40,850 nucleotides of DNA, taken from the IMG/VR virus record IMGVR_UViG_3300045155_000039; one strand, written 5' to 3'. How positions within the stretch are numbered: position 1 is the first letter of the stretch; each line of letters starts with the position of its first letter. Origin of the DNA: a virus. Shown here in pieces: positions 128 through 31,348 of the stretch. Both the position numbers and the translations under genes were made by a program. Under the pieces are notes generated by a model, which saw nothing but the letters and a program-made list of their open reading frames with translations, had not been told where the DNA came from and searched no databases.

Positions 128-1029
128 TCTTAAATATCTGGAATGGTATTAAAGCAGCACTAGCCTATATATGGACAACGATTCAAACGATTGCGATCGA
201 TACATTCAACAGTATTGTAGCTTTCTTTGTTGAAACATGGACCAATGTCAAACAAGGCACAATTGACGCTTGGAATAGTGTGAAAACATGGTTATCAGAG
301 ACATGGGAAAGCATGAAACAAGGGGCGATCGACACTTGGAATAGCGTGAAGCAATTCTTTATTGATCTGTGGGAGTCTATTAAGACAAACACAATCAACA
401 TGTGGAATGCGATCAAAGACGGTGTCACGACTGCTTGGGAAAATACTAAGAATGCTGTCATTAATACAGCGAAGAGCATTGTAGACGGTGCAGCGCAAGT
501 GTGGGAAGACATGAAAACCGGTGTTTCAAATGCCGTAGATAGAGTAAAAGAAACCTTTGACACCATCAGACAAATTGACCTACTGCAAATCGGAAAAGAT
601 ATCATTGATGGATTAGTGAATGGAATCAGAAGCAAGATTGATGATGTAGTAAATGCAGTTAAAGATGTTGCTGGATCTATTACTGGAAAAATCAAAGATG
701 TATTGAATATCCATTCTCCTTCACGTGTGATGGCTGAATTAGGTATGTTCACTTCGCAAGGTTTAGCAGAAGGTATGCTGGACGGTTCAAAATATGTGGA
801 TAAAGCATCCTCTACACTAGCTGACAAGGCATCGAACATGGACATTGGAAACCGAATTTCGGCAGTTAATAGCCAAATTCAAACACAGGTGCAACATGAA
901 GTCAGCTATGGAACCAATAACAAGCCAGCTGTTTTCAATGTTCGAATTGGAGATAGTGAGTTTTCTAAAATTGTTGATGACATTAGCCAAGCTCAAGGTA
1001 ATGGTATTAACTTAAATATGCAATTTTAG
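1..1029 (+). CDS. Tail tape measure protein, C-terminal part (continues 39038-40850 across the circular junction)
   Basis: Frame 1 is open from nt 1 and in phase with the ATG at 39038 (39038-40723 is 1686 nt, 562 codons). Trp-periodic repeats are present. Stop at 1027-1029. Confidence 0.9.
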   Translation, partial: GGWEEAKNNMIGVWNNIQTAAANIWASIQAIFDSFLTNTQMAFLNIWNGIKAALAYIWTTIQTIAIDTFNSIVAFFVETWTNVKQGTIDAWNSVKTWLSETWESMKQGAIDTWNSVKQFFIDLWESIKTNTINMWNAIKDGVTTAWENTKNAVINTAKSIVDGAAQVWEDMKTGVSNAVDRVKETFDTIRQIDLLQIGKDIIDGLVNGIRSKIDDVVNAVKDVAGSITGKIKDVLNIHSPSRVMAELGMFTSQGLAEGMLDGSKYVDKASSTLADKASNMDIGNRISAVNSQIQTQVQHEVSYGTNNKPAVFNVRIGDSEFSKIVDDISQAQGNGINLNMQF

Positions 1030-1039
1030 GAGGTAGGAA

Positions 1040-1822
1040 ATGGAAAACAGAATGTATCCGTTTATGGACACACAGAAAAATGAACGATACATAGCGGAGT
1101 ACATTCCTACTTCCGCTATGTATTATGATGGCATCCTATTTGAGAAGGTCATCGAAGGTTATCAAACATTGTCAGTCGAAGGAAGAGAAATGATATCTGT
1201 GGGCATTGAATCTGAATCAATTCAAGTCGGGAGCATTGTCACGAACCAGACGTTGCCTTCAAGGACGCTGACAGTGAAATATAAACTCGAAGATAACGAT
1301 CCAGAGAAACTGCAAAAAAAGTTTGATCTTTTAATGTGGTATCTCTATAAAACAAAAGATGTTCCAATTCAATTCAACGATGAATTAGACTACACATATC
1401 ATGGTCGGTTTTCATCTTCTAATACCGTTGCAGGCGACACAAACAGAATCGTTTCAAGTTTTGATATCTATTGTGCTGATCCTAGAAAGTATTCAAAGCA
1501 ATATAAATCAGATGGCGAAATTGCCACGTACATTCCATATACGATTGTCCCAGACATCGTAAGAGTTAAATTGAGCGCACCAACAAGCGTTAAAGTGACC
1601 AACGGCTCACTCTCTATGTCAATTACAGGTGCTAGCATTGTTGCAGGGGATGTAATTGAGTTTCGAAACAAAGAAGGTAGTGTGTATGTGAACGGTGTAG
1701 ATAAAACAAATATCTTAGATTGGGCTGGCGGACAACTTGAAGATTTCTACATCAAAAAAGGGGATGTTGTTAAGACAAACAATGGATCTCTCGAAGTCCT
1801 TTATCGGGTGGTGGCGCTATGA
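1040..1822 (+). CDS. Distal tail protein (Dit, siphovirus tail family)
   Basis: 260 aa, SD AGGAGG upstream. It sits directly after the TMP and before Tal, and its end overlaps the Tal start by 4 nt. Confidence 0.8.
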   Translation: MENRMYPFMDTQKNERYIAEYIPTSAMYYDGILFEKVIEGYQTLSVEGREMISVGIESESIQVGSIVTNQTLPSRTLTVKYKLEDNDPEKLQKKFDLLMWYLYKTKDVPIQFNDELDYTYHGRFSSSNTVAGDTNRIVSSFDIYCADPRKYSKQYKSDGEIATYIPYTIVPDIVRVKLSAPTSVKVTNGSLSMSITGASIVAGDVIEFRNKEGSVYVNGVDKTNILDWAGGQLEDFYIKKGDVVKTNNGSLEVLYRVVAL

Positions 1823-4677
1823 GCGAAAGCATTTACTTTCTTAATGATGAACAAGAACTGCTAAAAGTGTGCGGAGAAAGCAAAATTATTGAATCCGTCC
1901 AGTCGAAAGAAATCACAGCAGATAAAAGCGAGCTGATGAACGATACTTTGAGCGTTAGTGTATTGGATGACAAAAAAATTCGAGATGCTGCTTTTATGGC
2001 TGTTCGAGAAAATGATGATTCGTTTTCGATGTACAAAATAACCGCTGATAGCGACCCTAGAGGACGTTTAAGCTTTACAGGGGTTAACTTTGCAGTAGAT
2101 GAACTACATTCGTTTATCGTGCTTGATATGCGCCCTAGCAATCGAAGTATCAAACAAGTAGCAGAACAGATTCTTAGTTATACAAATGCTGAGTGGCGTG
2201 TGGGTTATGTCGATCCCACGCTTCCTGCAATTTCAGGAACGTTCTACTATCTAAGCGTTAAAGATGCTTTAAAGCAACTGCAGACGTTTGGCTGTGAGAT
2301 AGTCTTTAAATGTAAAATCGATGGCAACAAAATCACAGATAAATGGATTGAAATTTATAAGCAGATTGGGATATTCAGTAATAAACGATTCGTATATGGA
2401 TCAAATGCGCTTGAAGTCGTGCGTCAAAGAGACCGATCGCAACTATATACCTCGATTATCGGAAGGGGTAAAGGTGAAGAGGTCGGGGACGGCTACGGAC
2501 GAAGAATTGAATTCACTGACATCGAATGGAAAAAGTCGAATGGTAATCCGTTAGATAAGCCTAAAGGACAGAATTGGCTTGAATATCCTGAAATGACAGC
2601 ACTTTACGGCATACCGATGAAGAACGGAAGCAAGCGTAAACGGGAAACTGTTCTAATCTTGGAAGATATAGAAGACCCTAGAGAGTTGCTACAAGCGACC
2701 TATGAGAACCTTGTAGAATACTCAAGGCCGTTGATTCAATTCAAAACTTCTGTACTAGGTGGGGATTCAATCGGTAACACAGTAACCATCCACCGATCAG
2801 ACAAGAACTATCACTATAAAACTCGTGTTTTCAGCGTCAAAATCGATCGCATCAGAAACAAGGTTCAATGCGGATTAGGCGATAACTTGAACACTTCAAG
2901 TACCAGGCAAGCAGCAAGTGTTCAAAATAGTGTAACCAATTTAGCTGAAACAAAAATGACGTTCTATGATTCAACTGAAATCAGCAAATGGCAATCAGAT
3001 ATTATCCGTGGCGCTCATGGCGGTGCGGTTATTTTGATGTCCCCATCTGATTATCCAGCTAATCATCCTCAACGAGGGGAAAGTCGGCAGCCATTTCAAA
3101 TGGTATGGATGGACGGCGATTCTATTCAAACATCAAGTCATTTTTTAGTTGCAAATTCGGATGGGATTGGATTTATTGACGGCGATTTCTACACTAGTCC
3201 ATTTAAGACAGCTTGGACCATTGACGGTAAATTCAACGCTGACTTCATCCAAACTGGATCAATCATTGCTGATATTTTCGAAACATCATTTAACAAGCTA
3301 GGCGAGATTCTGAAACTGTCAGCCGGATCGTTACAAGCGATGAAAAACGGCAAAAAGATTATGGAGTTAACCAGTAAAGGGATGGAGTTCTGGGGAGCCA
3401 ACCGACAAATTGGGACAATTGGTACAACTGACTCAGCCGGCAATCCTTTTCCAGAAGCGTCCACGCCGACACCACTTGAAGATAACTCGCTTGTAATTAA
3501 AACAGAAGGCGATGGAAAGTACATTCTTATCTCGACAAAAGAAGGGTATGGATGGGTATTTCTTGGAGATGGATCGGGGATTTATCGTGGAGATGTTACT
3601 TATCAAGGGAATGTCCGTATAACAGGTGACTTAGATGTGCAGGGTCAAATCAGAATCCAAGGACAACAAGTTTATCCCGGTGGTTCTGGAGGAGGCGTTG
3701 GTCCCGGTGGTGCAACATATGATCCAATAAATATCGGCAGCAACATAACCGGAAATGCGAATATCGTTGCTTGGCTTGAAAAGTATACGAAACTATACGG
3801 TATTTCGGATTATATCGGACTAGCCTATGCGCTGATTATGGTAGAAAACCCCGGCACTGACGGAACAGATGACATCATGCAATCTTCTGAATCAGCGGGC
3901 TATCCTGGTCCCGGTTATCTTACGGGTGAAGCGTCGGTAAAACAAGGGTGTAAACACCTAGCTCAACAAATTAAAAACGGTCAGGATCAAAACGTAGATA
4001 TCTGGGGAGTGATGCAAGGTTACAACTTCGGTAGTGCATATATCCCTTGGCTCTCAAACAGAGGTGGAGTAAATACCACCGATTTGGCTGAGGTTTATTC
4101 AAGAACAGTTGTTGCTCCTTCACTAGGAAATACAACTGGTGCAACTTATCCATATGTAAATGCGGTGTCTCAAGCAGATGGCAGAACGTATCTGTATGTA
4201 AATGGTGGTAACTTTCACTATGCTGCGATGATACGACAATATGTGAAAGTGAATGAAAGTGTTGGATATGTAGTTCCGATTAGCAAGCCAGTCACTGTGA
4301 CTAGTGAGTTTGGCTACAGATACCATCCAATTACCGGATCGTATGAGCTTCACAACGGAATTGACCTAGTGAACGGAAATGCAACCACGCCTATATATGC
4401 ATCGGCAGCTGGTGAAGTAGTAATAGCTGGAAGTTACCCCGATTGGTACGGAAACTACGTTGTTATTAAGCACTCTGACGGGCTTTACACAGGGTATGCA
4501 CATCAAAGTCAACTGAGAGTTTCTGTAGGCGATACGGTCAATCAGGGACAACAAATCGGCAATATGGGGACAACTGGACCAAGTACTGGACCGCATTTGC
4601 ACTTCCAATTTTTTACAAATGGACCATGGCCATCCAATAGTGATTTTATTAATCCAAGAGAACACATAAATTTTTAG
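1819..4677 (+). CDS. Tail-associated lysin (Tal): baseplate/tail-endopeptidase N-domain + CwlT-like lysozyme domain + M23 peptidase
   Basis: 952 aa. Motif DIMQSSES...MQGYNFGSAY is lysozyme-like. Motifs HNGIDL, GYAHQS and GPHLHFQ are M23 HxxxD/HxH. A Gly-rich GGSGGGVGPGG linker is present. Confidence 0.9.
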   Translation: MSESIYFLNDEQELLKVCGESKIIESVQSKEITADKSELMNDTLSVSVLDDKKIRDAAFMAVRENDDSFSMYKITADSDPRGRLSFTGVNFAVDELHSFIVLDMRPSNRSIKQVAEQILSYTNAEWRVGYVDPTLPAISGTFYYLSVKDALKQLQTFGCEIVFKCKIDGNKITDKWIEIYKQIGIFSNKRFVYGSNALEVVRQRDRSQLYTSIIGRGKGEEVGDGYGRRIEFTDIEWKKSNGNPLDKPKGQNWLEYPEMTALYGIPMKNGSKRKRETVLILEDIEDPRELLQATYENLVEYSRPLIQFKTSVLGGDSIGNTVTIHRSDKNYHYKTRVFSVKIDRIRNKVQCGLGDNLNTSSTRQAASVQNSVTNLAETKMTFYDSTEISKWQSDIIRGAHGGAVILMSPSDYPANHPQRGESRQPFQMVWMDGDSIQTSSHFLVANSDGIGFIDGDFYTSPFKTAWTIDGKFNADFIQTGSIIADIFETSFNKLGEILKLSAGSLQAMKNGKKIMELTSKGMEFWGANRQIGTIGTTDSAGNPFPEASTPTPLEDNSLVIKTEGDGKYILISTKEGYGWVFLGDGSGIYRGDVTYQGNVRITGDLDVQGQIRIQGQQVYPGGSGGGVGPGGATYDPINIGSNITGNANIVAWLEKYTKLYGISDYIGLAYALIMVENPGTDGTDDIMQSSESAGYPGPGYLTGEASVKQGCKHLAQQIKNGQDQNVDIWGVMQGYNFGSAYIPWLSNRGGVNTTDLAEVYSRTVVAPSLGNTTGATYPYVNAVSQADGRTYLYVNGGNFHYAAMIRQYVKVNESVGYVVPISKPVTVTSEFGYRYHPITGSYELHNGIDLVNGNATTPIYASAAGEVVIAGSYPDWYGNYVVIKHSDGLYTGYAHQSQLRVSVGDTVNQGQQIGNMGTTGPSTGPHLHFQFFTNGPWPSNSDFINPREHINF

Positions 4678-9253: not shown

Positions 9254-9285
9254 CCCCTTACTCTTTGGAGTAGGGGGCCTTTTTC
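9254..9285. terminator. Bidirectional terminator shared by the endolysin (+) and the minus-strand cassette
   Basis: Hairpin cccc-t-tactc / gagta-gggg is followed by ccttttt on plus and by tatttgttt on minus. Confidence 0.65.
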
Positions 9286-9530
9286 ATTGCTTCGAATTCA
9301 ATCATGATCTTCGTTTTGCCAAGAACACTATATTTTTTCACAACAAACTGTTTCCGCTGGTTATACTCACCAGCCACCACAACCTGCATGTTCTCATCAA
9401 CATCGGCCAAGAAGTTCAAACTATGTGTAGCAATCAAGCAGTTTACATTATTTAGCGAGAAACGAACCAAAGGGGTCTTGCTCATCTTCAACACGCGTAT
9501 CTTCGATACACAGCCTTTCATCGTTTTCAT
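9258..9530 (-). CDS. Hypothetical protein C of the LexA-box cassette
   Basis: The minus-frame ORF is open 9258-9707. The ATG at 9530 has GGAGG 8 nt upstream, with an alternative ATG at 9485. No motif recognised. Confidence 0.4.
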   Translation of the reverse strand: MKTMKGCVSKIRVLKMSKTPLVRFSLNNVNCLIATHSLNFLADVDENMQVVVAGEYNQRKQFVVKKYSVLGKTKIMIEFEAMKKAPYSKE

Positions 9531-9717
9531 AACAATCGCCTCCGTAAGCTTGTACATAATAGCGACAATCCGTTTTACATAAAGTGACAGCAACATAAAA
9601 CTCGACACATTTTTCGCCGTATAAAGCTTCCTGTGACTCTGAAATACTGTCCGGGAATTCATATACGAAATCAGAAAGGGATAAGTAGCCTTGTTCATAT
9701 TGAGCAATAAGATTCAT
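9448..9717 (-). CDS. Hypothetical acidic Cys-containing protein B of the LexA-box cassette
   Basis: The ATG at 9717 is coupled to the upstream stop (TGAAATG), with SD GGTGG 8 nt upstream. 89 aa. Confidence 0.55.
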   Translation of the reverse strand: MNLIAQYEQGYLSLSDFVYEFPDSISESQEALYGEKCVEFYVAVTLCKTDCRYYVQAYGGDCYENDERLCIEDTRVEDEQDPFGSFLAK

Positions 9718-9718
9718 T

Positions 9719-10009
9719 TCAATTGCCACCGGGTTTATACTTTGTGTTAGGGTCGTATTTTCGAAGAATCTTATCTTGAGTCCTAACGTGATCAAATAGA
9801 TAGTTTTCTCCATCTTTCTTAAATACATAGGCTAATTCTTCTGGGTAACCACTATAGCTTGATGGCACGGTAAAATAGGGTTTTCCAAAGTTCTCCATCG
9901 TCCGAACAAACTGATCGTAAAGTAAGTGCGCTGGGCCCATTCGTTCGATGAATTCATAATAGTAGCGTTCAAAAGCATATGTCCGTTGGTGCGCATGTGG
10001 TATTTGCAT
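9719..10009 (-). CDS. Hypothetical protein A, first gene of the LexA-box cassette
   Basis: ATG at 10009 with GGAG 8 nt upstream, about 13 nt downstream of the predicted transcription start. 96 aa, no motif recognised. Confidence 0.65.
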   Translation of the reverse strand: MQIPHAHQRTYAFERYYYEFIERMGPAHLLYDQFVRTMENFGKPYFTVPSSYSGYPEELAYVFKKDGENYLFDHVRTQDKILRKYDPNTKYKPGGN

Positions 10010-10029
10010 ATCAATCACTCCTTGCAAGA

Positions 10030-10058
10030 ATTATACGAACGTTTGTTCTTGTTGTAAA
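10030..10058 (-). promoter_or_regulatory. Sigma-A type promoter TTTACA-N17-TATAAT (minus strand)
   Basis: The reverse complement of 10053-10058 is TTTACA and of 10030-10035 is TATAAT. The spacer is 17 nt. Confidence 0.7.
10036..10049 (-). promoter_or_regulatory. Candidate LexA operator (Cheo box) inside the promoter spacer
   Basis: The plus strand reads CGAACGTTTGTTCT (minus AGAACAAACGTTCG). It fits GAAC-N4-GTTC and matches 9 of the 10 specified positions of CGAAC-N4-GTTCG. Confidence 0.6.
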
Positions 10059-10074
10059 GCGAACAAAAGGTAAA

Positions 10075-10097
10075 GAAAAAAGCCTGCTATGCAGACT
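10075..10097 (-). terminator. Rho-independent terminator after the LysM lipoprotein gene
   Basis: Minus strand reads agtctgc-ata-gcaggct followed by tttttt. Confidence 0.7.
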
Positions 10098-10101
10098 TAG
10101 T

Positions 10102-10587
10102 TTATTTAACCCTGACTTGATCTCCGGGATAAAGCATATAGTAATCAGGCGTGAATCCATTTAACTCAAAGAATTGATCTACTGAAATACCACTTCTTTG
10201 AGCAATCATTTCTGGAGTTTCGCCTTTTTGAACGATTGTATATTCGGCAACACCTGCTTGAGGATCAACTACAGCAACGCTATTCTGTGGTTGTTCTTCA
10301 GCTTCTGAGCTTGGTTCACTGTAAGCAGGGGCAGCATTTTGCTGAGTAGCACTTGATTCTTCGTAAACGATTTCCGACGAACTAGCTTGAGTAGATGAAA
10401 TCGATTCTATAGTGCTAGATTCTTCTTGCGAAGTTTCCTCTTTAGTTGTCTGCGTCGTTGATTCAACAGTTGAAGATGATTCAACAGTACTTGAACTAGA
10501 TGAGGAGCTATTCGTAACAGTTTTTTCATTAGAACAACCAACCAATAGGAACATACCAACAAAAAGTAACCAACTGATTTTTTTCAT
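10102..10587 (-). CDS. Secreted lipoprotein with Ser/Thr-rich linker and C-terminal LysM domain
   Basis: Signal peptide and lipobox MKKISWLLFVGMFLLVGC. SSTVES repeats form the linker. The C-terminus YTIVQKGETPEMIAQRSGISVDQFFELNG...PGDQVRV is LysM. Confidence 0.85.
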   Translation of the reverse strand: MKKISWLLFVGMFLLVGCSNEKTVTNSSSSSSSTVESSSTVESTTQTTKEETSQEESSTIESISSTQASSSEIVYEESSATQQNAAPAYSEPSSEAEEQPQNSVAVVDPQAGVAEYTIVQKGETPEMIAQRSGISVDQFFELNGFTPDYYMLYPGDQVRVK

Positions 10588-10599
10588 AATGTTCTCCTT

Positions 10600-11235
10600 T
10601 TATAATCCCAATAATTCTTTTTTCTTTTCATCAAATTCTGCTTGAGAAATAATTCCATCATCAAGAAGGCCTTTGAATTTTCTCAACTCATCTGCATTGC
10701 TGTCGGCAGATGCAGACCCTTGAGTATTTGAATAAATTATTTGATCCAGTTTAGCAGCTATGTTGTTGTAATCTTCCATCGCCGACTTCGTAAGGAAACT
10801 ATCTGATTTTGATTCTGAAATCATAAGCATATAGTTTTGAGAGCGATTGTCAGTAAGGTGAAGGATGAAGCCTAATCGCTTAATGGTATCAAATTCTTTC
10901 CCGCCAGTTCCAGCTCCTACAACAGCACCAACAGGACCAGCTAAAACGCCGCCAACAATTGCACGTGTAATACCATGATGTTTTTTGATTTTACCACCTT
11001 CAAAAATAGGCGTGTAGCTAATTAACTCATCGTAATTGTATACAGCTTGTGATCTGTTCATGGTAAAAGATTTCTTTATAAATAATTTTCCATGTTTATC
11101 ATCAAAAAACATATCGCCAACTTTGTAGTCACTATGGTTCTTAAAGTATTCTAGTATTTTTTCGTTTTCAGCTTTACGATTCGCTTTTTCAATCTTTGCC
11201 TTTTCTTTATCCGCTTTGCTGCTAAACAAACCCAT
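10600..11235 (-). CDS. SHOCT-domain protein with central glycine-zipper hydrophobic segment
   Basis: The C-terminus LRKFKGLLDDGIISQAEFDEKKKELLGL is the SHOCT motif. AIVGGVLAGPVGAVVGAGTGG is a Gly zipper. SD GAGG lies 7 nt upstream of the ATG. Confidence 0.75.
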   Translation of the reverse strand: MGLFSSKADKEKAKIEKANRKAENEKILEYFKNHSDYKVGDMFFDDKHGKLFIKKSFTMNRSQAVYNYDELISYTPIFEGGKIKKHHGITRAIVGGVLAGPVGAVVGAGTGGKEFDTIKRLGFILHLTDNRSQNYMLMISESKSDSFLTKSAMEDYNNIAAKLDQIIYSNTQGSASADSNADELRKFKGLLDDGIISQAEFDEKKKELLGL

Positions 11236-11268
11236 ACACGTTCCTCTTTTCGTTAATTTTATAGCTTC

Positions 11269-11299
11269 ATTGTATCAGAAAAGAGTCATACTTTGTAAA
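11269..11299 (-). promoter_or_regulatory. Extended -10 promoter for the SHOCT/LysM unit
   Basis: The minus strand reads TGaTACAAT (the -10 is the reverse complement of 11269-11274). TTTACA or TACAAA lies 19 or 17 nt upstream. Confidence 0.55.
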
Positions 11300-11363
11300 C
11301 AAAAACGATAGTGTTTCACTAAGCAAAACCATTAAAGAAATTAAATAACACCATTTTTAATAG

Positions 11364-11385
11364 TTTCATCCACAAAACATCCACA
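11364..11385 (+). repeat. Direct repeat TTTCATCCACAAAACATCCACA, copy 1 (candidate Int arm sites)
   Basis: The 22-nt string is identical to 11570-11591. Each copy holds two CATCCACA units. Confidence 0.8.
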
Positions 11386-11446
11386 CAGTTTCTCCAAATT
11401 AATACAAAAAACGGAAAACAAAAAGATGGCAATATATATGGAAAGG

Positions 11447-11474
11447 TTGATAAAACAATATTCTTGTGTATAAT
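11447..11474 (+). promoter_or_regulatory. Orphan plus-strand promoter TTGATA-N16-TATAAT inside the attP region
   Basis: TTGATA at 11447-11452 and TATAAT at 11469-11474. No plus-strand ORF follows. Confidence 0.45.
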
Positions 11475-11549
11475 AAGTACTTGTGCGAAGCGCACCGCGG
11501 TTCATCAACCAAAACGTTTATATTCCATTAAAACCCTTCAAACCAACAT

Positions 11550-11572
11550 AAAAAGCTCCTTTTTAGCTTTTT
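11550..11572. terminator. A/T-flanked hairpin (bidirectional terminator candidate, downstream of int)
   Basis: aaaaagct-ccttttt-agcttttt, an 8-bp stem with an A-run on one side and a T-run on the other. Confidence 0.5.
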
Positions 11573-11591
11573 CATCCACAAAACATCCACA
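11570..11591 (+). repeat. Direct repeat TTTCATCCACAAAACATCCACA, copy 2
   Basis: Identical to 11364-11385. It ends 18 nt from the int stop codon. Confidence 0.8.
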
Positions 11592-11608
11592 TGAAAATAG
11601 AATTTATT

Positions 11609-12736
11609 TTAGAAATAACGTTCATACATAGATATAGCTTCAGTTTCCATTTTCTTAGAAACATGAAGATACACGTTTGCGGTCATATTTATCGAAGAGT
11701 GTCCTAATCGTTCCGATACATATTTGATGTTAGATCCACTTTCAAGCAAGTGTACTGCATGAGAATGTCTTAATGCATGAGGTGAGAGACGAGGTAACTC
11801 GGCTAAATCGCACATTTTATAAAAGTAGGTTCTATAATTCGACTGCTTGATAAAGTCTCCGCGTTCATCTGTAAATACATACTCTTGATTAGGTATGTTT
11901 TTGGATGAAGCAAGGGCTAGCTCATTTTTTTTAATTTTGAAATTCTTTAATAATTCGATCAGATATCTGTCAATTACAATTTTTCTATAGCTTGATTGTG
12001 TTTTTGGAGGGTTTATATAGTCGGTTTTTCCCTCACGATACAAAGTTTTGTTTATTTCTATTTTATTTCTGTTCCAATCATCCCATTTCAACGCAGAAGC
12101 TTCTCCTAGTCTCAAACCAGTTCGTGATAAGAGTGTAGATAGCACAAAATAAAGGTAGTCCATAAAATCATTTTCTTCCGCATGACTTTTGCTGATGTCT
12201 AAAAAATAAACCAAATCATCTTTTTCAAAGAATTTTATTTCTTTTTTGTTTTTGTGTGATTTAGGATACTTTATATTTTTCATCGGATTGGATTCTAGTA
12301 ACTGGTATTCTACAACCGCATCCTCGAGCGCGCTATTGAAAGGGGCAACATAGGATTTGACAGAGTCTACATTTAAGTGATCGCAAAGTTCGTTGATCCA
12401 TGTTATACATTCAAGTCTTGTGATTTCGGTAAGTTTGTAAAACTCGAATCGTGGAAGGATGTACAAACGAATAGATTTTTTTATTCTATATAAAGTTGAC
12501 TGTTTGACAGTCCGTGCTTTCAGATCAATCCACATCTTTAAATAGTCCCCCACGAGCATGGATTCGTTGTATAAGGCCTTCCCCTTTTTTATCCTATTTT
12601 CAACCTCGATAGATGCTGCCAATGCTTCTTTTTCTGTTTTAAAACCTTGTTTGGCAACTTCCCTGTATACTCCGTTTTTCTTATAGCGAACTCGGTAACG
12701 CCAATTATCTTTAGCTACTTCTTTAATGTTTGCCAT
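11609..12736 (-). CDS. int: Tyrosine integrase
   Basis: Start MANIKEV at 12736, with AGGAG 9 nt upstream. Catalytic motifs are RTGLRLGE, HALRHSHAVHLL and LGHSSINMTANVYLHV. Confidence 0.95.
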   Translation of the reverse strand: MANIKEVAKDNWRYRVRYKKNGVYREVAKQGFKTEKEALAASIEVENRIKKGKALYNESMLVGDYLKMWIDLKARTVKQSTLYRIKKSIRLYILPRFEFYKLTEITRLECITWINELCDHLNVDSVKSYVAPFNSALEDAVVEYQLLESNPMKNIKYPKSHKNKKEIKFFEKDDLVYFLDISKSHAEENDFMDYLYFVLSTLLSRTGLRLGEASALKWDDWNRNKIEINKTLYREGKTDYINPPKTQSSYRKIVIDRYLIELLKNFKIKKNELALASSKNIPNQEYVFTDERGDFIKQSNYRTYFYKMCDLAELPRLSPHALRHSHAVHLLESGSNIKYVSERLGHSSINMTANVYLHVSKKMETEAISMYERYF

Positions 12737-12801
12737 ATTGTACCAACTCCTAATATTTGATAAAATAGGCATAGCAAATAAGCCTATATGTTTATTGCTC
12801 T

Positions 12802-12844
12802 GCACGCCTTCTGACCGCCAAGAAAGAGGGGCGTGCTTTTATTT
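12802..12844 (+). terminator. Bulged hairpin with a T-tract oriented for plus-strand termination, between immA and int
   Basis: gcacgcc...ggcgtgc with inner ttct/agaa pairs, followed by ttttattt on the plus strand. No U-run follows it on the minus strand. Confidence 0.4.
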
Positions 12845-13186
12845 GAAATAATTAATGTCGTATCCCATACCAATGTCGAAAGTTTCTATAACCTGACTAT
12901 AATTATAAAAACCATCATTCTCATTAATTATATAGTTGACCATAAAATTGTTTGCTTCGTTTTCCATCTTAGAATGAGCAACAAAATTCTTATAGAGAGC
13001 GACGTAGTCTTCGTGGTCAATTACATGTTTCATCTCGTGAACTATCACTCTTTTCATCTCGTCGTCAGATAATTTCTGATTTACAAAAATGATTTTCCAC
13101 GCAGGAACATAATATCCGTTTTTTTCCATTTCTTTAACTACTATTTTGACTCCGAGTTCATCCAATTGGCTTCGCAGCTCGTTCAC
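12839..13186 (-). CDS. immA: ImmA/IrrE-family zinc metallopeptidase (anti-repressor protease)
   Basis: 115 aa with HEXXH motif VHEMKHVIDHED. GTG start with SD GAGGTGA. It lies directly downstream of the repressor gene. Confidence 0.8.
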   Translation of the reverse strand: MNELRSQLDELGVKIVVKEMEKNGYYVPAWKIIFVNQKLSDDEMKRVIVHEMKHVIDHEDYVALYKNFVAHSKMENEANNFMVNYIINENDGFYNYSQVIETFDIGMGYDINYFK

Positions 13187-13198
13187 AAAATCACCTCA

Positions 13199-13516
13199 TT
13201 ATTTACCTTTACGGCCCATCATATAAGCAATTATTGCTTCTTTATCGCTTTCAGTCATTTCTTCGCCGTCAAACGAAAGCACATTTTTTAAAGCGGCTCT
13301 TAATTCAGTCTCTTCTTTTGAAATATCCTTCCTTTCTAATAAATCATCAATAGATGCTCCAAAAAAATCAGCAACTTTTTGTACGTTTTCAACTTTAGGA
13401 GATGCTTTATCCCACCTTCTGATTTGTCCATTAGAGAGACCAACTTTTCTTTCGATTTCAGCAAAAGTAACATTTTTCTCGTCCGCAAGTCGTTTGATAT
13501 TTTGTACTAAACTCAC
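13199..13516 (-). CDS. XRE-family HTH repressor (CI/ImmR-like), no peptidase domain
   Basis: The HTH is VTFAEIERKVGLSNGQIRRWDKA. It is only 105 aa and is divergent from the cro-like gene. Confidence 0.9.
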   Translation of the reverse strand: MSLVQNIKRLADEKNVTFAEIERKVGLSNGQIRRWDKASPKVENVQKVADFFGASIDDLLERKDISKEETELRAALKNVLSFDGEEMTESDKEAIIAYMMGRKGK

Positions 13517-16069: not shown

Positions 16070-16399
16070 ATGTCAGATTATATCGCAACAGATTACGACA
16101 ACCTGATGCAAGACGAATGCAGCCATGTATTCCCAAATATCCATTCTGAGGAATCACAAGAAGAAGTTGATCCATCGGCGCATTGGAACGAAGACGACAA
16201 CGAAACGCCCGTTCACTCAGCGGACTGGTTGTTTATAGGCTACAGAAAGACCGGACTGACACGTACTAAGTTTGTTTTACAGCAAGAAAACTTTCTAAGC
16301 ATGATTGAGGAATTCGGACCATCGTCATTACTTATGAATGAATTAAAGATTGTTAGTGGAGAAGATTGGTTAGATCAAAGACTGGAGGAATTTAAGTGA
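16070..16399 (+). CDS. Acidic hypothetical protein upstream of erf
   Basis: 109 aa, SD AGAGGAGTGGGA. It overlaps erf by 4 nt. Confidence 0.6.
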   Translation: MSDYIATDYDNLMQDECSHVFPNIHSEESQEEVDPSAHWNEDDNETPVHSADWLFIGYRKTGLTRTKFVLQQENFLSMIEEFGPSSLLMNELKIVSGEDWLDQRLEEFK

Positions 16400-17040
16400 G
16401 CGATAAAGAACGAACATTTCTAGAGAGAGTATCTCTTTTGATAACAGAATTGAAAGCTCCCAAGAGTCAAAGAAATAATTTTGGTAAATACAACTATAGA
16501 AGTGCCGAAGATATTCTGGAAGCAGTAAAGCCGCTGGCAAACAATTACGGCTTGGTACCTAAACTTTCTGATGAACCAGTTATGATAGGCGATTGGCATT
16601 ACATTAAAGCGACCGCATCTATCAAAGATGTAAAAACAGGGGAAGAAGAAATCGCAACAGCTTACGCTAGAGAACCACTGGCTAAAAAGGGAATGGATGA
16701 ATCTCAAATAACAGGAACAGCTTCATCTTATGCCCGTAAATATGCAATGAACGGACTTTATCAGATTGATGATACCAAGGATGCAGATTCGGATGAATAT
16801 ACCGAGCAAGTTAAGCAAGCAACACCTAAGCCAATTACAAAATCGCAACAAGAAGCTTTGCAAAAACGATCTGATGAAATTGCTAAGATGGCTAAACTTG
16901 AAAGCAAAAATTTCTTTGACCAGATTACGGAAAAGAAAATTGGTTACTCAGTAGATATCAGCAAGGTTAACACAGAACAACTCGGGACATTGACTAGATA
17001 TCTGAATGAACTGGAAAAATACTATCAAGGCAAGAAGTGA
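16396..17040 (+). CDS. erf: ERF-family single-strand annealing recombinase
   Basis: Motifs NFGKYNYRSAEDILEAVKP and TGTASSYARKYAMNGLYQIDD are typical of Erf. Confidence 0.85.
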   Translation: MSDKERTFLERVSLLITELKAPKSQRNNFGKYNYRSAEDILEAVKPLANNYGLVPKLSDEPVMIGDWHYIKATASIKDVKTGEEEIATAYAREPLAKKGMDESQITGTASSYARKYAMNGLYQIDDTKDADSDEYTEQVKQATPKPITKSQQEALQKRSDEIAKMAKLESKNFFDQITEKKIGYSVDISKVNTEQLGTLTRYLNELEKYYQGKK

Positions 17041-17045
17041 TTTGA

Positions 17046-17723
17046 ATGAACAATCTTTCGTATCTAGCAAAAATAACAAATGTCGATGGAGACAAAGTCA
17101 CTTTACAACTCAAAGAGTCGCTAAACATCGAACGACTCAAAACAATCTTTGATGGATATGACGGCGAGCGACAAGCGGAAATATTCATCAAAGACCCACG
17201 AGGGTTCACAGTCGAGCAGAGACGCTTCACATTCGCTTTAATGCAAGACATATATATTTACACTGGCGAGCCATTAGAGAGCCTTAAAGACGTGTTCTAT
17301 TGGCAATTTCGATACTTCACAGGGAAGAACATTAGCTTGTCAAATAAATCGGAGAACACAGTCGATGAAGTTTCAACATTAGATGAATTGATCCTAGATT
17401 TCATCTTCGCAAATGACATTCCGTTTCGTGAAGGTTATGAGATTCCGCCACAAAACGAACAGTACTTTTTCTATAAATGTGTGACAAACAGGACCTGCTG
17501 CATTTGCGGTAAAAAGAACGCTGACATCGATCACTTTGACAAAGCTTTAGGAAGACGAAAGCGGAAAGAAGTAGATCACACAGAATTTACTTTTGCAGCA
17601 CTTTGCAGACTCCATCATACCGAGAAGCATCAAATAGGAATTACAGAGTTTAAGAACAAGTATCACGTTATTGGTATCAAACTGAATCAAGACGAGATTA
17701 AAAAGTTGAGGATCGGAGGTTAA
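17046..17723 (+). CDS. Zinc-finger / HNH-like nuclease-domain protein
   Basis: The C-terminus CCICGKKNADIDHFD...EVDHTEF..CRLHHTEKH is a Cys/His HNH-type motif. Confidence 0.55.
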   Translation: MNNLSYLAKITNVDGDKVTLQLKESLNIERLKTIFDGYDGERQAEIFIKDPRGFTVEQRRFTFALMQDIYIYTGEPLESLKDVFYWQFRYFTGKNISLSNKSENTVDEVSTLDELILDFIFANDIPFREGYEIPPQNEQYFFYKCVTNRTCCICGKKNADIDHFDKALGRRKRKEVDHTEFTFAALCRLHHTEKHQIGITEFKNKYHVIGIKLNQDEIKKLRIGG

Positions 17724-26692: not shown

Positions 26693-26695
26693 TTG
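26680..26695 (+). repeat. Junction repeat, copy 3 (true start context of the late activator)
   Basis: Identical 16-mer. Confidence 0.9.
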
Positions 26696-27106
26696 AGTAA
26701 GAATGATTCATTAATCAATGAGCTAGATAGAAAGTTTGCTAACTATCATGCATATAACAAAGAGATTGCTATTCGAAAAGAGGAGCTGAAGCTTCGAGAA
26801 GTCGATGAAAATATTGGCGGTGGTCGAAGTAATATCATGAGCAATCCGATTGAGTCACAGGTAATCAAGGAAATGTCTGATCCATACATTATGAATCGTG
26901 AGTTGTGGAAGAAAGCTGTGAAGGAAACTCTAAGCGATCAAAGTGCGGAAATAAGACAGTTGATTGAAACTAAGTACTGGGGAGAAGACAGTTGGATGGA
27001 TTGGGTAAGTTTTGGCAAGAAGCATGGATATGCGAGAACGCCAATCTATCGTATTAGACAAAAAGTTTTACTCGACTTTGGCAGAAAGATTGGTGAAATC
27101 AATTAA
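26693..27106 (+). CDS. RinA/ArpU-family late-gene transcriptional activator
   Basis: 137 aa, last early gene before the packaging genes. The pattern NYHAYNKEI...DENIGGGRSN...IYRIRQKVLLDF is typical of this family. Confidence 0.7.
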   Translation: MSKNDSLINELDRKFANYHAYNKEIAIRKEELKLREVDENIGGGRSNIMSNPIESQVIKEMSDPYIMNRELWKKAVKETLSDQSAEIRQLIETKYWGEDSWMDWVSFGKKHGYARTPIYRIRQKVLLDFGRKIGEIN

Positions 27107-27255
27107 TTTGGGAAAGAAACGTGTAGTTTTCCCTGTGTCAAGAGGGGTAAAATAGTATTATCAGATATCGCCCACAAGCAGAAACGCACAACGGCATTCA
27201 ACCTCCTTTTGATACGTAAAAATTATTCTGTGGGCGATAATCTTTCAAGAGCTCT

Positions 27256-27285
27256 GGGACAAATTCGACTTCTTGAGGGTATAAT
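27256..27285 (+). promoter_or_regulatory. Promoter candidate GGGACA-N18-TATAAT (weak -35, activator-dependent type)
   Basis: TATAAT at 27280-27285, GGGACA at 27256-27261. Confidence 0.45.
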
Positions 27286-27335: not shown

Positions 27336-27524
27336 ATGAACCCAAACGAAATGTTGAAAGCTGAAAATGAGTTAAAAGATTACTTAACAAAGAACGGCAT
27401 TAAAAACGTGAGAGTTAATGAAGGTGTAATAACAATAGCAAATCAAGAAGATGAAAACGATGTTGTTGATGGTCTAAGAAATAACCTAGATGCTAATCTT
27501 GAAATAATTAAAGACTATATTTAG
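27336..27524 (+). CDS. Small acidic hypothetical protein (moron-like cassette)
   Basis: 62 aa, AGGAG 7 nt upstream. A strong terminator follows immediately. Confidence 0.6.
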   Translation: MNPNEMLKAENELKDYLTKNGIKNVRVNEGVITIANQEDENDVVDGLRNNLDANLEIIKDYI

Positions 27525-27531
27525 TTCCCAT

Positions 27532-27564
27532 AAAAGTCACTCATTGCGAGTGGCTTTTTATTTT
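27532..27564 (+). terminator. Rho-independent terminator
   Basis: Stem aaaagtcactc/gagtggctttt of about 11 bp (one G-U pair), loop attgc, then ttttatttt. Confidence 0.8.
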
Positions 27565-28792
27565 GCAGAAAAGCGAGGTGGCAGACATAACTAAATGGAC
27601 GGAACAGCAGGTCAAACGATTGTCGGAATTGGCAAATGAAGGACTAACAAATATAGAGATAGCGCCTATGCTTTCGGAGGAGTTCGGTGAAGAGTTCTCA
27701 TGGCCAAGCGTTAGAAGTAAACGTGCCAGGTTGAAGTTGCCACCGAGCGATAAGAACATGCGTGTTAAGCAACCGAGTGACCAATCAATCAACGAAAACA
27801 AACGGTACAACATAGATGGTACTATTTCCCAAGCTGAATTCGATGTGAAGATGGCTTTCTACCAGAAGGACAGTAAAACACCAGAAGATATTCTCAAGTA
27901 CAAGGGCTATGATCCGCAAGAGTGGGAAATATCGCAAGTAACCACCAATGAGTGGACAACCACTACAGCGGATATCCAGAAATGGAATCAGCAGTTGAAG
28001 TTTGTGGTGAAGCCAAAGCACAAGGCATTTAATGCATCTGCCTTCACTGAATCGATCAAGCCAGTAAAACTAACCGCAATCAAGACAGGTGACAGAAACT
28101 TATTCATCGGGTTGGCAGATTGGCATTTTGGTATCACTAAGTTAGAGGACTTGCAAGATAAGCTAGCGGGAATGATTGAAGTTATCTCAAAAGGCTATAA
28201 GCAGATTGTTATTGGTCAGCTAGGAGATTTATTCCATAGCAGCCAAATCAAAAAGTCGGTCACGATGGCTGGCACGCAATTAGAAGATGTGGACATGGTT
28301 ACAGCAATTAAGGATGCACGAGCATTCTTCGACGTGTTGATTACTGAGTGTGTGAGACATTCGAAGCAAGTGACTGTTGAACACGCCGAAGGAAATCATA
28401 GTGGATCGATCGAGTATATGTTTCTCTTATACCTAGAAGCCAAGTACCCAGACATCCAAGTACACGCACACAACAAATACCGTCAAGCGTTCATGTTGGA
28501 TAAAGTGGCGATTATGATTACTCATGGGCAGTATGGCAAGCGGAAGGATTTGCCAATGCTGTTCGCTACTGAGTTTAGCGATATATGGAGTAAAGCAACT
28601 ACACGGGAGATAATCACTGGTCATTTCCACACACAACAGACGAATGATTATCAAGGTGTGATCCATCGTCAGCTAGGGACCATTAAGCCTAATGACAGCT
28701 ACGAGATCGAAAACGGTTGGACGATGGGCAAGAAGGTGCTGCAGTTGTTTGAATATGATAGTGAAAGGTTGAGGGTGACTTATGACATCTAA
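27563..28792 (+). CDS. GcrA-like/Myb-like HTH fused to a calcineurin-like metallophosphoesterase
   Basis: The N-terminus WTEQQVKRLSELANEGLTNIEIA...SVRSKRARLKL fits the GcrA N-domain pattern. MPE motifs are LADWHFG, LGDLFHS, EGNHSG, ITHGQ and TGHFHTQ. The start is TTG 27563 or GTG 27578, both with a poor SD. Confidence 0.8.
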   Translation: MQKSEVADITKWTEQQVKRLSELANEGLTNIEIAPMLSEEFGEEFSWPSVRSKRARLKLPPSDKNMRVKQPSDQSINENKRYNIDGTISQAEFDVKMAFYQKDSKTPEDILKYKGYDPQEWEISQVTTNEWTTTTADIQKWNQQLKFVVKPKHKAFNASAFTESIKPVKLTAIKTGDRNLFIGLADWHFGITKLEDLQDKLAGMIEVISKGYKQIVIGQLGDLFHSSQIKKSVTMAGTQLEDVDMVTAIKDARAFFDVLITECVRHSKQVTVEHAEGNHSGSIEYMFLLYLEAKYPDIQVHAHNKYRQAFMLDKVAIMITHGQYGKRKDLPMLFATEFSDIWSKATTREIITGHFHTQQTNDYQGVIHRQLGTIKPNDSYEIENGWTMGKKVLQLFEYDSERLRVTYDI

Positions 28793-29030
28793 AAATAAAA
28801 CGTTCTATGTATATGCGAGTTGTCTAAGCGATATTTACTTTTTAGATGAATACGATGAAGAAATCACTTCAAGAGTTTGCCCTATGTGTGGAGATTCAGA
28901 TGACTATGTTGGATCTTTTGATAATGTAGAAGACCTCGTTAAGGAAGCTTGCTACGATGACTGGTATTGCTTTAGAGAAGATTATGTGCGCGAGTCTTGG
29001 AACAAGCACATGAAGCTAGTAGGTGACTGA
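28782..29030 (+). CDS. Acidic zinc-ribbon-like hypothetical protein
   Basis: 82 aa with CPMCGD. It overlaps the upstream stop. Confidence 0.55.
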   Translation: MTSKNKTFYVYASCLSDIYFLDEYDEEITSRVCPMCGDSDDYVGSFDNVEDLVKEACYDDWYCFREDYVRESWNKHMKLVGD

Positions 29031-29031
29031 T

Positions 29032-29238
29032 ATGCATTACTATTACATCCAGCTGTCAGTAGGAATATTAAATCATAAGAACATCCGACAAGCGGAGTTG
29101 AAATCTAAGCACACGTTGCTTGAATGCTATGGGCAGTTTAGTGACGAGTATATCGATCGGCATAGGTTGATATACATTGGGCATGGTTGGAAGAGTGATC
29201 CACATATTGTGGAGAGGTTAAGGAGGTATGGAATGTGA
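29032..29238 (+). CDS. Hypothetical protein
   Basis: ATG at 29032 after AGGTG. 68 aa. Confidence 0.5.
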   Translation: MHYYYIQLSVGILNHKNIRQAELKSKHTLLECYGQFSDEYIDRHRLIYIGHGWKSDPHIVERLRRYGM

Positions 29239-29561
29239 AATTCTTTGAAGCATTATTAACGGTTGATGTAGAACCTGAATTCGCTGAAGCATATAAGAAG
29301 GCGATTGAGGGCGAGAACGAAAGATACTTCACCGAGAACCCTGTATACGATAAAGAGGGAAGGTTGATCAGCAATGATATTAAACCTGTATGGAGTGGGA
29401 ACTATGTGAATGTGGAGATTATCCGTGTTGGAACATCGATAGAATATTCAATAATTAATGGATTAAAAATCTCGGTAGTATCCCGAACTCAACCAAACGT
29501 TGAGGAGTTCATTAAACAGTATGAGCGAGAGGGAGCAACACTAGTTAAGAAGAACTTTTAA
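29235..29561 (+). CDS. Hypothetical protein
   Basis: GTG start, AGGAGG 8 nt upstream. 108 aa. Confidence 0.55.
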   Translation: MKFFEALLTVDVEPEFAEAYKKAIEGENERYFTENPVYDKEGRLISNDIKPVWSGNYVNVEIIRVGTSIEYSIINGLKISVVSRTQPNVEEFIKQYEREGATLVKKNF

Positions 29562-29580: not shown

Positions 29581-29703
29581 ATGAGTTTAAACCCAAGACA
29601 ACTAGCTTTTGCTGATGAGTACATCATCACTAAGGAAGTATTTTTAGATATGGAAGAAGTATTCAGATACGCTCAAAAAAAGTCAAGTTCGGAGGTGTTT
29701 TAG
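29581..29703 (+). pseudogene. Remnant of a Terminase_2-type small-subunit N-terminus (40 codons)
   Basis: MSLNPRQLAFADEYII matches the usual TerS opening (L.PKQ..FA.EYI). The ORF then diverges and stops. Confidence 0.4.
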
Positions 29704-29706
29704 ACA

Positions 29707-30057
29707 ATGGCTAATAATTATGAAAAAGCAATAGTCTTAATGGTTAGAACGTCATTGACTCAACGAGAAATTGCCAAAGGACTTGATGTTACAGAAGAAA
29801 CTATTTCAAGGTGGAAAAAAAGAAAAGATTTTGAAGATTTAAAGACAGCCGAAGAAAAGAAATTTCTCAAAGACTTATCTAGCAAATCTATTCGAACGAT
29901 GGAAGAACTGCTGACAGCTAAAAGCGAGCTAGTTAGATTTAACGCAGCAAAAGATATTTTGGACAGAACGGGGCATAAACCTGTTGAAGTATCTGAAATG
30001 TCGGTTACAGAAGTTCCTACATTTATCGATGATATCGGTAGTGAAGACGATGGCTAA
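29707..30057 (+). CDS. terS: Terminase small subunit (HTH type)
   Basis: 116 aa with LTQREIAKGLDVTEETISRWKKRKDF...AAKDILDRTGH. It overlaps the terL start. Confidence 0.8.
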   Translation: MANNYEKAIVLMVRTSLTQREIAKGLDVTEETISRWKKRKDFEDLKTAEEKKFLKDLSSKSIRTMEELLTAKSELVRFNAAKDILDRTGHKPVEVSEMSVTEVPTFIDDIGSEDDG

Positions 30058-31348
30058 AAAGCTTTCTGATTTACTACCTGAGAAGTTCCATAGCGTATGG
30101 AGGGCTACCCTTAACTCTGACATATTGAATATCGTATGCAAGGGCGGTCGTGGATCTGGTAAATCATCGGATATTGCACATATAATCACTCAATTGTTAA
30201 TGCGATACGCTGTAAATGCAGTCGGGATTCGGTATGTTGATAATACGCTTGAGCAATCTTTGTATGAACAAATGAAATGGGCGATTGAACAGCAAGGTGT
30301 TTCCCACCTGTTCAAGTTTAATAAATCTCCCTTGAGGATTACTTATAAACCTCGTGGTAACTACATGATATTTCGTGGTGCGCAAAATCCAGAACGAATC
30401 AAATCTTTGAAGGACAGCAAATTTCCTTTTGCGATTGGTTGGATTGAGGAGCTAGCAGAATTTAAGAATGAAGATGAAGTAACGACTATCACCAACTCTC
30501 TATTGCGGGGAGAATTGGATGATGGTCTTTTTTATAAGTTCTTTTACAGTTATAACCCGCCGAAGCGGAAGCAATCATGGGTAAATAAAAAATATGAAAC
30601 ATCCTTTCAGCCTAAGAACACATTCATTCATCACTCAACTTATAAAGATAACCCCTTTATCTCTAAAGAGTTTCTGAGCGAAGTTGAAGCGGCTAGAGCA
30701 AGGAACCCTAGACGAGCTGAGTGGGAATATGATGGTAAAGCTATTGGTTCTGGCGTTGTACCTTTCGACAATCTGAAAGTAGTGCCAGGGAGCATCACAG
30801 ATGAGATGGTAGCTAACTTCGACAACATTCGAAACGGGAATGACTTTGGTTATGCAACTGATCCCCTAGCGTTTGTTAGATGGCATTACGACAAAAAGAA
30901 AAATGGTATCTATGCAATAGATGAAATTTACGGCGTGAAGATTAGCAATAGAGAATTAGCGAAAAAACTCCATGAAAAAGGATATCAAAACGACGAGATA
31001 TTCTCTGATTCTGCTGAGCCAAAAAGTAACGCTGAGTTAGTGAACGAACATGGCATCAGAAATATTAAAGGTGTCAAAAAAGGACCTGATTCCGTCGAAT
31101 ATGGCGAGCAATGGTTAGATGATTTGGACTTCATTTGTATTGATCCTTTGCGAACGCCGAACATCGCCAAAGAGTTTGAAAATATAGATTATCAAACCGA
31201 TCGTGATGGAAATCCAAAGCCAAGGTTAGAGGATAAAGACAACCATACGATCGATGCGACAAGGTATGCATTTAACGAAGACATGTGGGCTAAAAAGAAA
31301 TCAACCATTACCAAAGAGAAGCGGAACAAAATCAAGAGAATGTTTTAA
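30050..31348 (+). CDS. terL: Terminase large subunit (PBSX/Terminase_3 type)
   Basis: Start MAKKLSD at 30050. Walker A is CKGGRGSGKSS. The C-terminal nuclease region contains DNHTIDATRYA. Confidence 0.95.
   Translation: MAKKLSDLLPEKFHSVWRATLNSDILNIVCKGGRGSGKSSDIAHIITQLLMRYAVNAVGIRYVDNTLEQSLYEQMKWAIEQQGVSHLFKFNKSPLRITYKPRGNYMIFRGAQNPERIKSLKDSKFPFAIGWIEELAEFKNEDEVTTITNSLLRGELDDGLFYKFFYSYNPPKRKQSWVNKKYETSFQPKNTFIHHSTYKDNPFISKEFLSEVEAARARNPRRAEWEYDGKAIGSGVVPFDNLKVVPGSITDEMVANFDNIRNGNDFGYATDPLAFVRWHYDKKKNGIYAIDEIYGVKISNRELAKKLHEKGYQNDEIFSDSAEPKSNAELVNEHGIRNIKGVKKGPDSVEYGEQWLDDLDFICIDPLRTPNIAKEFENIDYQTDRDGNPKPRLEDKDNHTIDATRYAFNEDMWAKKKSTITKEKRNKIKRMF

Follow-up and report, generated by a model that had tools for sequence, protein, structure and literature searches.

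A phage helix-turn-helix metallophosphoesterase of the PHROG 704 family, encoded between a late activator and the terminase genes: a candidate DNA-directed nuclease

The window analysed here, the 40,850-nucleotide IMG/VR virus record IMGVR_UViG_3300045155_000039, encodes on its plus strand a protein in which an N-terminal helix-turn-helix (HTH) domain is joined to a calcineurin-like metallophosphoesterase (MPE) domain, and whose gene lies between a late transcriptional activator and the terminase genes. This protein is an ordinary member of a widespread phage family that lacks experimental characterisation, and its novelty was overestimated in the original prediction, a note made from the sequence alone. 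The present analysis adds a nuclease-leaning placement of the MPE domain, evidence for an HTH of some kind as an integral part of the family, a slot between the late activator and three different terminase systems that phages of enterococci and lactic acid bacteria have kept, and a hairpin, likewise conserved, directly upstream of the gene. The leading interpretation, plausible though tentative, is that the protein may be a DNA-tethered, Mn2+/Mg2+-dependent DNA exo- or endonuclease acting around the transition from replication to packaging.

The open reading frame (ORF) was confirmed together with the translation first given for it, a product of 409 aa read from a TTG start at 27563. In an AlphaFold2 model of the whole protein, for which the predicted local distance difference test (pLDDT) score was 77 overall, the chain is laid out as helices at residues 14-25, 30-41 and 47-56, a disordered linker at about 57-88, two helices at 90-113, a long beta-hairpin at 121-151 and the MPE core at 179-408. 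The gene and its parts are as follows:
27563 to 28792, plus strand: HTH-MPE gene, 409 aa from TTG 27563; the likelier, conserved start is GTG 27578 or ATA 27587
27590 to 27733, plus strand: N-terminal tri-helical HTH (residues 10-57), Myb/SANT/GcrA-like, with three helices at pLDDT 80-88
27827 to 28072, plus strand: family-specific middle module (residues 89-170) of two helices and a long beta-hairpin, in which W131 and K146 do not vary between close relatives
28088 to 28789, plus strand: metallophosphoesterase catalytic domain (residues 176-409) with five intact motifs

The protein matched PHROG 704 ('DNA repair exonuclease') over its full length (E=1.9e-83, 281.8 bits, residues 10-408 against profile positions 2-385 of 390), and therefore the entire architecture, N-terminus included, is that of the PHROG 704 family. 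Relatives were detected by tblastn in 287 GenBank phage records, and the HTH-MPE layout recurs in the 68 of them that cover at least 80% of the query. The nearest named phage is Enterococcus gallinarum phage phiEG37K (ORF3, 89.5% identity), followed at 36-38% identity by Lactobacillus phages BH1 (gp54) and PL-1 and Oenococcus phage phiS13 (AHB80378); BH1 gp54, AHB80378 and phiEG37K ORF3 have the same HTH, middle module and MPE domain and the same place ahead of terS, with no substantive difference from the window protein. A profile search of 1.84 billion representative proteins returned 4,744 clusters (50% identity) at E<=1e-3, of which 317 reach E<=1e-30; in many clusters the alignment begins at profile position 2-5. 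The fusion is thus a large catalogued phage family rather than an oddity. The original prediction knew of no characterised phage function for it, and a literature search on the PHROG 704 family and on phage MPEs beside ArpU or the terminase likewise found no functional study. As for the other outcome that it had envisaged, a common phage protein with an assigned role, the protein is indeed common and labelled, but the PHROG 704 name is a homology-based guess. Scans of NCBIfam and PADLOC gave no match for the protein, and neither phmmer nor profile searches produced a significant match among PDB sequences.

All five calcineurin-like motifs read earlier from the sequence (DWH, GDLFH, GNHS, THG and GHFH) are present, as D186-W-H188, G221-D222-L-F-H225, G277-N278-H279-S, T-H321-G322 and G353-H354-F-H356. 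No motif residue varies in an alignment of 33 relatives (44-93% identity). Among 132 representatives that are only 21-46% identical to the query, the metal ligands D186, H188, D222, H279 and H356 are still invariant, and conservation of N278, H321 and H354 is at least 90%; within a 107-sequence subset, N278 and H321 are invariant too. The five metal ligands, on whose conservation in homologues the original prediction had made its case depend, are consequently the residues that do not vary. Invariance of the metal-binding residues at such low identity is far beyond chance and argues for an enzyme that is almost certainly active and not for a decayed fold.

The window protein stays below the gathering threshold of Pfam Metallophos_2 (15.8 bits, cut-off 27, E=0.015), while Metallophos matches 35 and Metallophos_2 34 of 107 relatives (E<=0.01). 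The modelled MPE core, mostly at pLDDT 80-98, has the beta-sandwich MPE fold. Foldseek gave 84 PDB matches at E<=1e-3, and among the 50 matches listed all are MPE-fold proteins; the neighbours are PolD DP1 (E=4.6e-8), Rv0805, LpxH, Mre11 and Vps29, together at E=5e-8 to 1e-5, and also polymerase B-subunits. Placement by Foldseek, as had been proposed, hence confirmed the fold but did not separate the subfamily, DP1, Rv0805, LpxH and Mre11 being matched alike.

The subfamily was approached through motifs and profile comparisons. Motif I, DWHFG, resembles the DWHLG of SbcD and T4 gp47, and motif II, GDLFH, resembles the GDLxH of Mre11 in an alignment with T. maritima Mre11; the family consensus motifs are DxHFG, GGDxFHxD and GNHD, where the window protein has DWHFG, GDLFH and GNHS. 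When an MPE-only profile was compared by hhalign with a panel of eight enzymes, T4 gp47 reached a probability of 91.2% (E=1e-6, 101 columns), followed by E. coli SbcD (25%), CpdA (22.6%), Bxb1 gp47 (21.9%), NinI (2.2%) and LpxH, YfcE and ApaH (about 2%). The 132-sequence profile, searched against 177,635 PDB sequences, brought up as its only MPEs five Mre11/SbcD orthologues, at individually insignificant values (E=0.63-1.8). Among the PHROG families, T4 gp47 and SbcD are placed in PHROG 100, Bxb1 gp47 in PHROG 221 (E=4.5e-116) and NinI in PHROG 246, and the window protein matches none of these three. Judged by such comparisons, the MPE domain appears nearest to the Mre11/SbcD-type nucleases, yet not a canonical member of that group, because it belongs to another PHROG and has neither a capping domain nor a Rad50/SbcC partner. 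With T4 gp47, E. coli SbcD and archaeal and human Mre11 it shares the fold and the motif flavour DWH(L/F)G, GDLxH, GNHD and GHxH, whereas an N-terminal HTH and a beta-hairpin module stand in place of the capping domain and the Rad50-type partner. Of the three roles contemplated in the original prediction, namely an Mre11/SbcD-type nuclease, a lambda-type phosphatase and a cyclic-nucleotide phosphodiesterase, the first is consequently the best supported by motifs and by the hhalign match to T4 gp47, although the canonical features of that family are missing.

The N-terminal domain had been described as GcrA-like. The pattern is real, three helices are predicted and the description is fair for this member, but the match to Pfam GcrA (PF07750) is below threshold (E=0.045, 14.6 bits, cut-off 26.9; residues 11-80 against model positions 2-66 of 155) and concerns only the N-terminal part of GcrA, the C-terminal sigma-70-binding half not being matched. 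GcrA and Myb/SANT domains share with the window protein the W-T-x-E...L...G(L/Y)(S/T)...IA...V..K..RL pattern and the three predicted helices, and the alignment of 33 relatives shows conservation of W12 and L23. The window protein itself gave no match to the Myb_DNA-binding Pfam profiles, and the family profile matches c-Myb repeats weakly in the PDB (E=0.88). When 107 relatives were scanned singly, the HTH types recognised were Myb_DNA-binding in 10 (best 1.1e-9), Myb_DNA-bind_6 in 8, HTH_23 in 4, GcrA in 3 (best 3.8e-5), Sigma70_r4_2 in 3 and HTH_38 in 3, with single cases of MarR, ArsR, Crp and other winged-helix types. Since relatives match Myb more often and other, unrelated HTH types are swapped in, the domain is better termed at the family level a Myb/SANT/GcrA-like tri-helical HTH.

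An N-terminal extension of 55-161 aa is found in all 107 of these diverse relatives, and wherever Pfam recognises it, it is a DNA-binding HTH. Across the family, the N-terminal domain is accordingly read from profiles as a putative small DNA-binding HTH, always present but exchangeable. The middle module that follows it is specific to the family: with residues 1-175 modelled apart (AlphaFold2, pLDDT 75), the best Foldseek match in the PDB had E=0.26, and no structural neighbour was found for the module.

The position of the gene was compared in 80 related IMG/VR loci, 78 of which have a called homologue (37-96% identity, 14 groups at 80% identity). In 64 of these 78 loci the MPE gene is followed by terL, which lies at a median distance of 1,372 bp (range 579-3,143); most of the other 14 contigs end first. 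These downstream terL genes fall into three clusters unrelated to one another, every one of which comes with a terS of its own and one of which is accompanied by an HNH gene as well. As the same MPE group occurs with all three terminase types, the MPE gene keeps its slot while packaging modules are exchanged. On the other side, an Ltr/ArpU-type activator is found at most four genes upstream in 45 of the 64 loci with enough sequence. Ltr genes close the replication module, and their products act on the promoter of the late operon, which is situated immediately downstream (PMC3753634). From its position, the HTH-MPE gene would stand at the head of the late operon or just before it. In three of the loci (L032, L033 and L034), a second, unrelated metallophosphoesterase of 463 aa (PHROG 7158) is encoded between the ArpU-type activator and the HTH-MPE gene, directly 5' of the latter, and these phages therefore have a tandem of two different MPE genes.

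In the proposed mechanism, the N-terminal HTH would tether the protein to DNA, and the dinuclear-metal phosphodiesterase domain of Mre11/SbcD flavour would cleave that DNA without a Rad50/SbcC partner, the action falling at the point where replication gives way to late gene expression and packaging. Its possible jobs would be the trimming or debranching of replication or recombination intermediates and of free concatemer ends, or the degradation of host DNA. We infer that DNA is the substrate and that the gene is expressed with the late operon or just before it. The strongest argument for DNA rather than a soluble nucleotide as substrate is that the HTH is ubiquitous in the family but interchangeable.

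Stand-alone MPEs of mycobacteriophages may serve as a precedent for a nuclease. For Bxb1 gp47, whose fold neighbours are Mre11, DP1 and LpxH, a limited exonuclease activity has been published, and replication of the phage DNA requires the protein (PMC11795197); A10ZJ24 Gp48, a phosphodiesterase, causes disruption of host DNA and acts against defence (PMC12287305). In both cases the activities published are on DNA. Both are, like the window protein, phage MPEs without a Rad50 partner and with the same fold neighbours. They differ from it in belonging to PHROG 221, in their size of about 255 aa without HTH or middle module, and in being early or replication-module genes of serine-integrase phages, whereas the integrase of the window phage is of the tyrosine type.

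Several results weigh against a DNA-tethered nuclease acting at this transition. The hhalign match to T4 gp47 spans motifs I-III only, no solved Mre11/SbcD is matched significantly by sequence (best PDB profile E=0.63), and Foldseek leaves nucleases and small-molecule phosphodiesterases unseparated. No capping domain is present, the protein ending with the last strands of the MPE core (394-398 and 403-408 of 409). The window encodes no Rad50/SbcC/gp46-like ATPase and its early region has no ORF longer than 437 aa; nor does a Rad50/SbcC-type partner stand out among the gene clusters conserved around the MPE gene in the 78 related loci. An HNHc_6 nuclease is encoded beside Erf in this phage, so that the recombination nuclease may already be provided. 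The conserved terminator-like hairpin directly 5' of the MPE gene, described below, obscures the mode and timing of expression. Finally, proximity to terS is not universal and distant relatives occur in other contexts: the homologue of Streptococcus phage Javan271 follows Erf and a Holliday-junction resolvase, that of Streptococcus phage Javan399 is 3.5 kb from terS after replication genes, and that of Yersinia phage vB_YenM_25 adjoins a polynucleotide kinase/phosphatase.

Among the alternatives, a counter-defence nuclease that attacks host chromosomal DNA, or the DNA or RNA of a defence system, is the one that survives best, even if it seems rather unlikely. A10ZJ24 Gp48 provides the model, being a stand-alone phage MPE that disrupts host DNA and is needed against host defences (PMC12287305). 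The window protein has an intact active site and a DNA-binding domain that would suit such an attack, and the block from activator to terS looks accessory and mosaic. Gp48 belongs, however, to the other family of Bxb1 gp47-type MPEs (PHROG 221, 21.9% by hhalign) and is an early gene, while the MPE gene of the window comes after the late activator; moreover, PADLOC gave no match and no link to any defence system was found.

A narrower form of the nuclease, given slightly less weight still, is an accessory packaging nuclease whose HTH would bind phage DNA and which would trim or debranch concatemer ends or junctions, enabling the terminase to initiate or carry on headful packaging. The MPE gene would then be the first sizeable gene expressed downstream of the Ltr/ArpU activator. 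If true, this would explain why the gene has kept its place just 5' of three unrelated terS/terL systems. The cos-type terminases of Gram-positive phages require HNH proteins, to which such a packaging nuclease would be a parallel.

Two further alternatives are both improbable. The first is a phosphodiesterase of signal nucleotides (cAMP, cGAMP, cyclic oligoadenylates or Ap4A) that would blunt CBASS, Pycsar or type III CRISPR. Rv0805, a class III cyclic nucleotide phosphodiesterase, is the third-best Foldseek match (E=4.7e-7), the hhalign comparison with CpdA aligns 160 columns at 22.6% probability, and all the catalytic motifs are common to class III enzymes. For the cyclic-nucleotide role put forward in the original prediction, the fold decides neither way, Rv0805 not being separated from Mre11, LpxH or DP1; the profile prefers T4 gp47 (91.2%) over CpdA, and motif II is GDLFH as in Mre11 and not the class III GDxxxxG. 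A family-wide DNA-binding HTH is also hard to explain for an enzyme acting on soluble nucleotides. In addition, the anti-signalling enzymes known to us (Acb1, Apyc1 and ring nucleases) have other folds and are early genes.

The second is a protein that is mainly a DNA-binding regulator or architectural factor, in late transcription or near pac, with the MPE domain as a sensor or moonlighting module. It would fit the conserved place after the Ltr activator, beside the presumed late promoter and the pac region, and the GcrA/Myb-like N-terminus, and Bxb1 gp47 offers the precedent of a moonlighting MPE that doubles as recombination directionality factor (PMC11795197). Strictly invariant catalytic residues argue, on the contrary, for selection on enzyme activity, the sigma-70-binding half of GcrA is absent, and the swapping of HTH types argues against one specific operator. 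The role of directionality factor for a serine integrase is itself excluded here, the integrase being a tyrosine recombinase.

A proofreading exonuclease associated with a polymerase, after the manner of the PolD DP1 small subunit, is very improbable. DP1 is the top Foldseek match, with 374-405 aligned columns, and the label 'DNA polymerase II small subunit' is attached to several metagenomic relatives. Like the window protein, PolD DP1 and the eukaryotic polymerase B-subunits are multi-domain proteins with an N-terminal module followed by the phosphodiesterase domain, and they have the best Foldseek E-values. The DP1 alignments have, however, a root-mean-square deviation of 17-18 A, and the middle module is a beta-hairpin with no demonstrable oligonucleotide/oligosaccharide-binding fold and no PDB neighbour. 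A partner polymerase is missing: no DNA polymerase gene was found in the window, whose early region encodes, beside Erf and the HNHc_6 nuclease, only a DnaD-like loader, a DnaB-like helicase and SSB, and the polymerase small subunit was rejected on this ground. Least probable of all is the Ser/Thr/Tyr protein phosphatase of lambda PP (NinI) type entertained in the original prediction. In its favour are the shared fold superfamily and the location of lambda NinI, which likewise closes the early region immediately ahead of the late regulator Q. It was rejected on motifs and hhalign, given that GDxxDRG and GNHE are absent (GDLFH and GNHS instead), NinI scores 2.2% and PHROG 246 is not matched.

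Turning to the surroundings of the gene, the features from the activator to terL are:
26693 to 27106, plus strand: ArpU/Ltr-family late transcriptional activator (PHROG 36, E=2.8e-10; PHROG 248, E=5.3e-6)
27336 to 27524, plus strand: 62-aa ORF between activator and MPE gene, with no family match and no homologue in the 80 related loci
27532 to 27558, plus strand: terminator-like hairpin AAAAGTCACTC-ATTGC-GAGTGGCTTTT followed by TATTTT, ending about 20 nt 5' of the likely start codon
27570 to 27581, plus strand: conserved Shine-Dalgarno-like AAGCGAGGTGG containing GTG 27578, present in 40 related loci
28782 to 29561, plus strand: three small overlapping ORFs of 82, 71 and 108 aa (PHROGs 4501, 1202 and 5859)
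29581 to 29703, plus strand: 40-aa ORF, relic of a different terS type
29707 to 30057, plus strand: terS (PHROG 2538)
29984 to 31348, plus strand: terL (Terminase_3)

The gene order is activator, 62-aa ORF, hairpin, HTH-MPE, three small ORFs, terS relic, terS, terL and portal, in which the late activator, the three small ORFs, the TerS relic and terS stand as originally described. The 71-aa ORF (29023-29238, PHROG 1202) follows the MPE gene in 41 related loci, and in 4 further loci it is found as the C-terminal portion of a longer protein; its product is a possible partner of the MPE. The 40-aa ORF gave blastp matches to the N-termini of terS of cluster 8 (7 loci) and cluster 157 (4 loci), the cluster 8 representative being a PHROG 51 terminase small subunit. 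By this similarity it is a genuine relic of a terminase-module swap, directly 5' of the functional terS.

The start of the MPE gene probably differs from the annotated one. TTG 27563 is not conserved as a start among related loci, and in 11 of 39 of them an in-frame stop lies just 5' of the GTG equivalent to 27578, with no start codon between. The Shine-Dalgarno-like GAGGTG (27575-27580) precedes codon 27587, which is always ATA or ATT and lies 8 nt past GAGG. Because of the upstream in-frame stops and of this conserved arrangement, TTG 27563 is an unlikely start and the true N-terminus is probably 5-8 residues shorter than annotated, the rest of the protein being unaffected; residues 1-9 are predicted to be disordered in the AlphaFold2 model. 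The ATA/ATT codon at 27587 may possibly serve as a non-canonical start.

The hairpin upstream of the gene is kept in 25 of 39 Enterococcus-type loci, and the DNA farther 5' is of several unrelated types. Its loop is variable, and two changes in the stem are compensatory (one in L030 and L047, the other in L056). The gap of about 20 nt from the hairpin and T-run to the conserved GTG is too small for a standard promoter. Because the hairpin and T-run abut the gene without room for a promoter, transcripts must either read through the hairpin or start unconventionally. The hairpin could hold a potentially toxic nuclease at a low level. Its 3' arm, GCGAGTGGC, resembles the downstream Shine-Dalgarno-like GCGAGGTGGC. 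Rfam at gathering thresholds gave zero matches in the window.

The intergenic DNA 3' of the ArpU-type gene contains, at 27166-27239, a perfect inverted repeat of 11 nt (TATCGCCCACA / TGTGGGCGATA) whose arms are 52 nt apart, and downstream of it is a promoter-like site at 27256-27285 (GGGACA-18-TATAAT). An Ltr-type triplet of 7-nt direct repeats was sought 3' of the activator gene, where no convincing triplet was found, only the 11-nt inverted repeat.

As a whole, the window has the appearance of a temperate phage genome of Enterococcus gallinarum/casseliflavus that is complete and circularly permuted. The first 9 kb are presumed to hold tail and lysis genes; LysM and SHOCT-domain proteins are encoded on the minus strand (9258-13516) with a tyrosine integrase at 11609-12805, followed by the early region and the packaging and head genes. 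In the early region, a putative HNHc_6 nuclease at 17046-17723 (PF16784, E=9e-33; PHROG 398, 'unknown function') comes directly after an Erf-like annealing protein at 16396-17040 and is a candidate recombination nuclease partner for Erf. The idea of the MPE as exonuclease partner of Erf is weakened by this HNHc_6 gene adjoining erf.

Taken together, the family to which the HTH-MPE protein belongs occurs in phages of lactic acid bacteria, enterococci, streptococci, Salmonella, Yersinia, Rhodobacter, Flavobacterium and others, and its relatives bear in public databases four incompatible names, 'DNA repair exonuclease', 'helix-turn-helix domain-containing protein', 'metallophosphoesterase' and 'DNA polymerase II small subunit', so that a single study combining biochemistry and genetics would set right the annotation of numerous genomes. 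The slot from activator to terminase, fixed across terminase types, and a catalytic domain that always bears some HTH supply a starting hypothesis for such a study.

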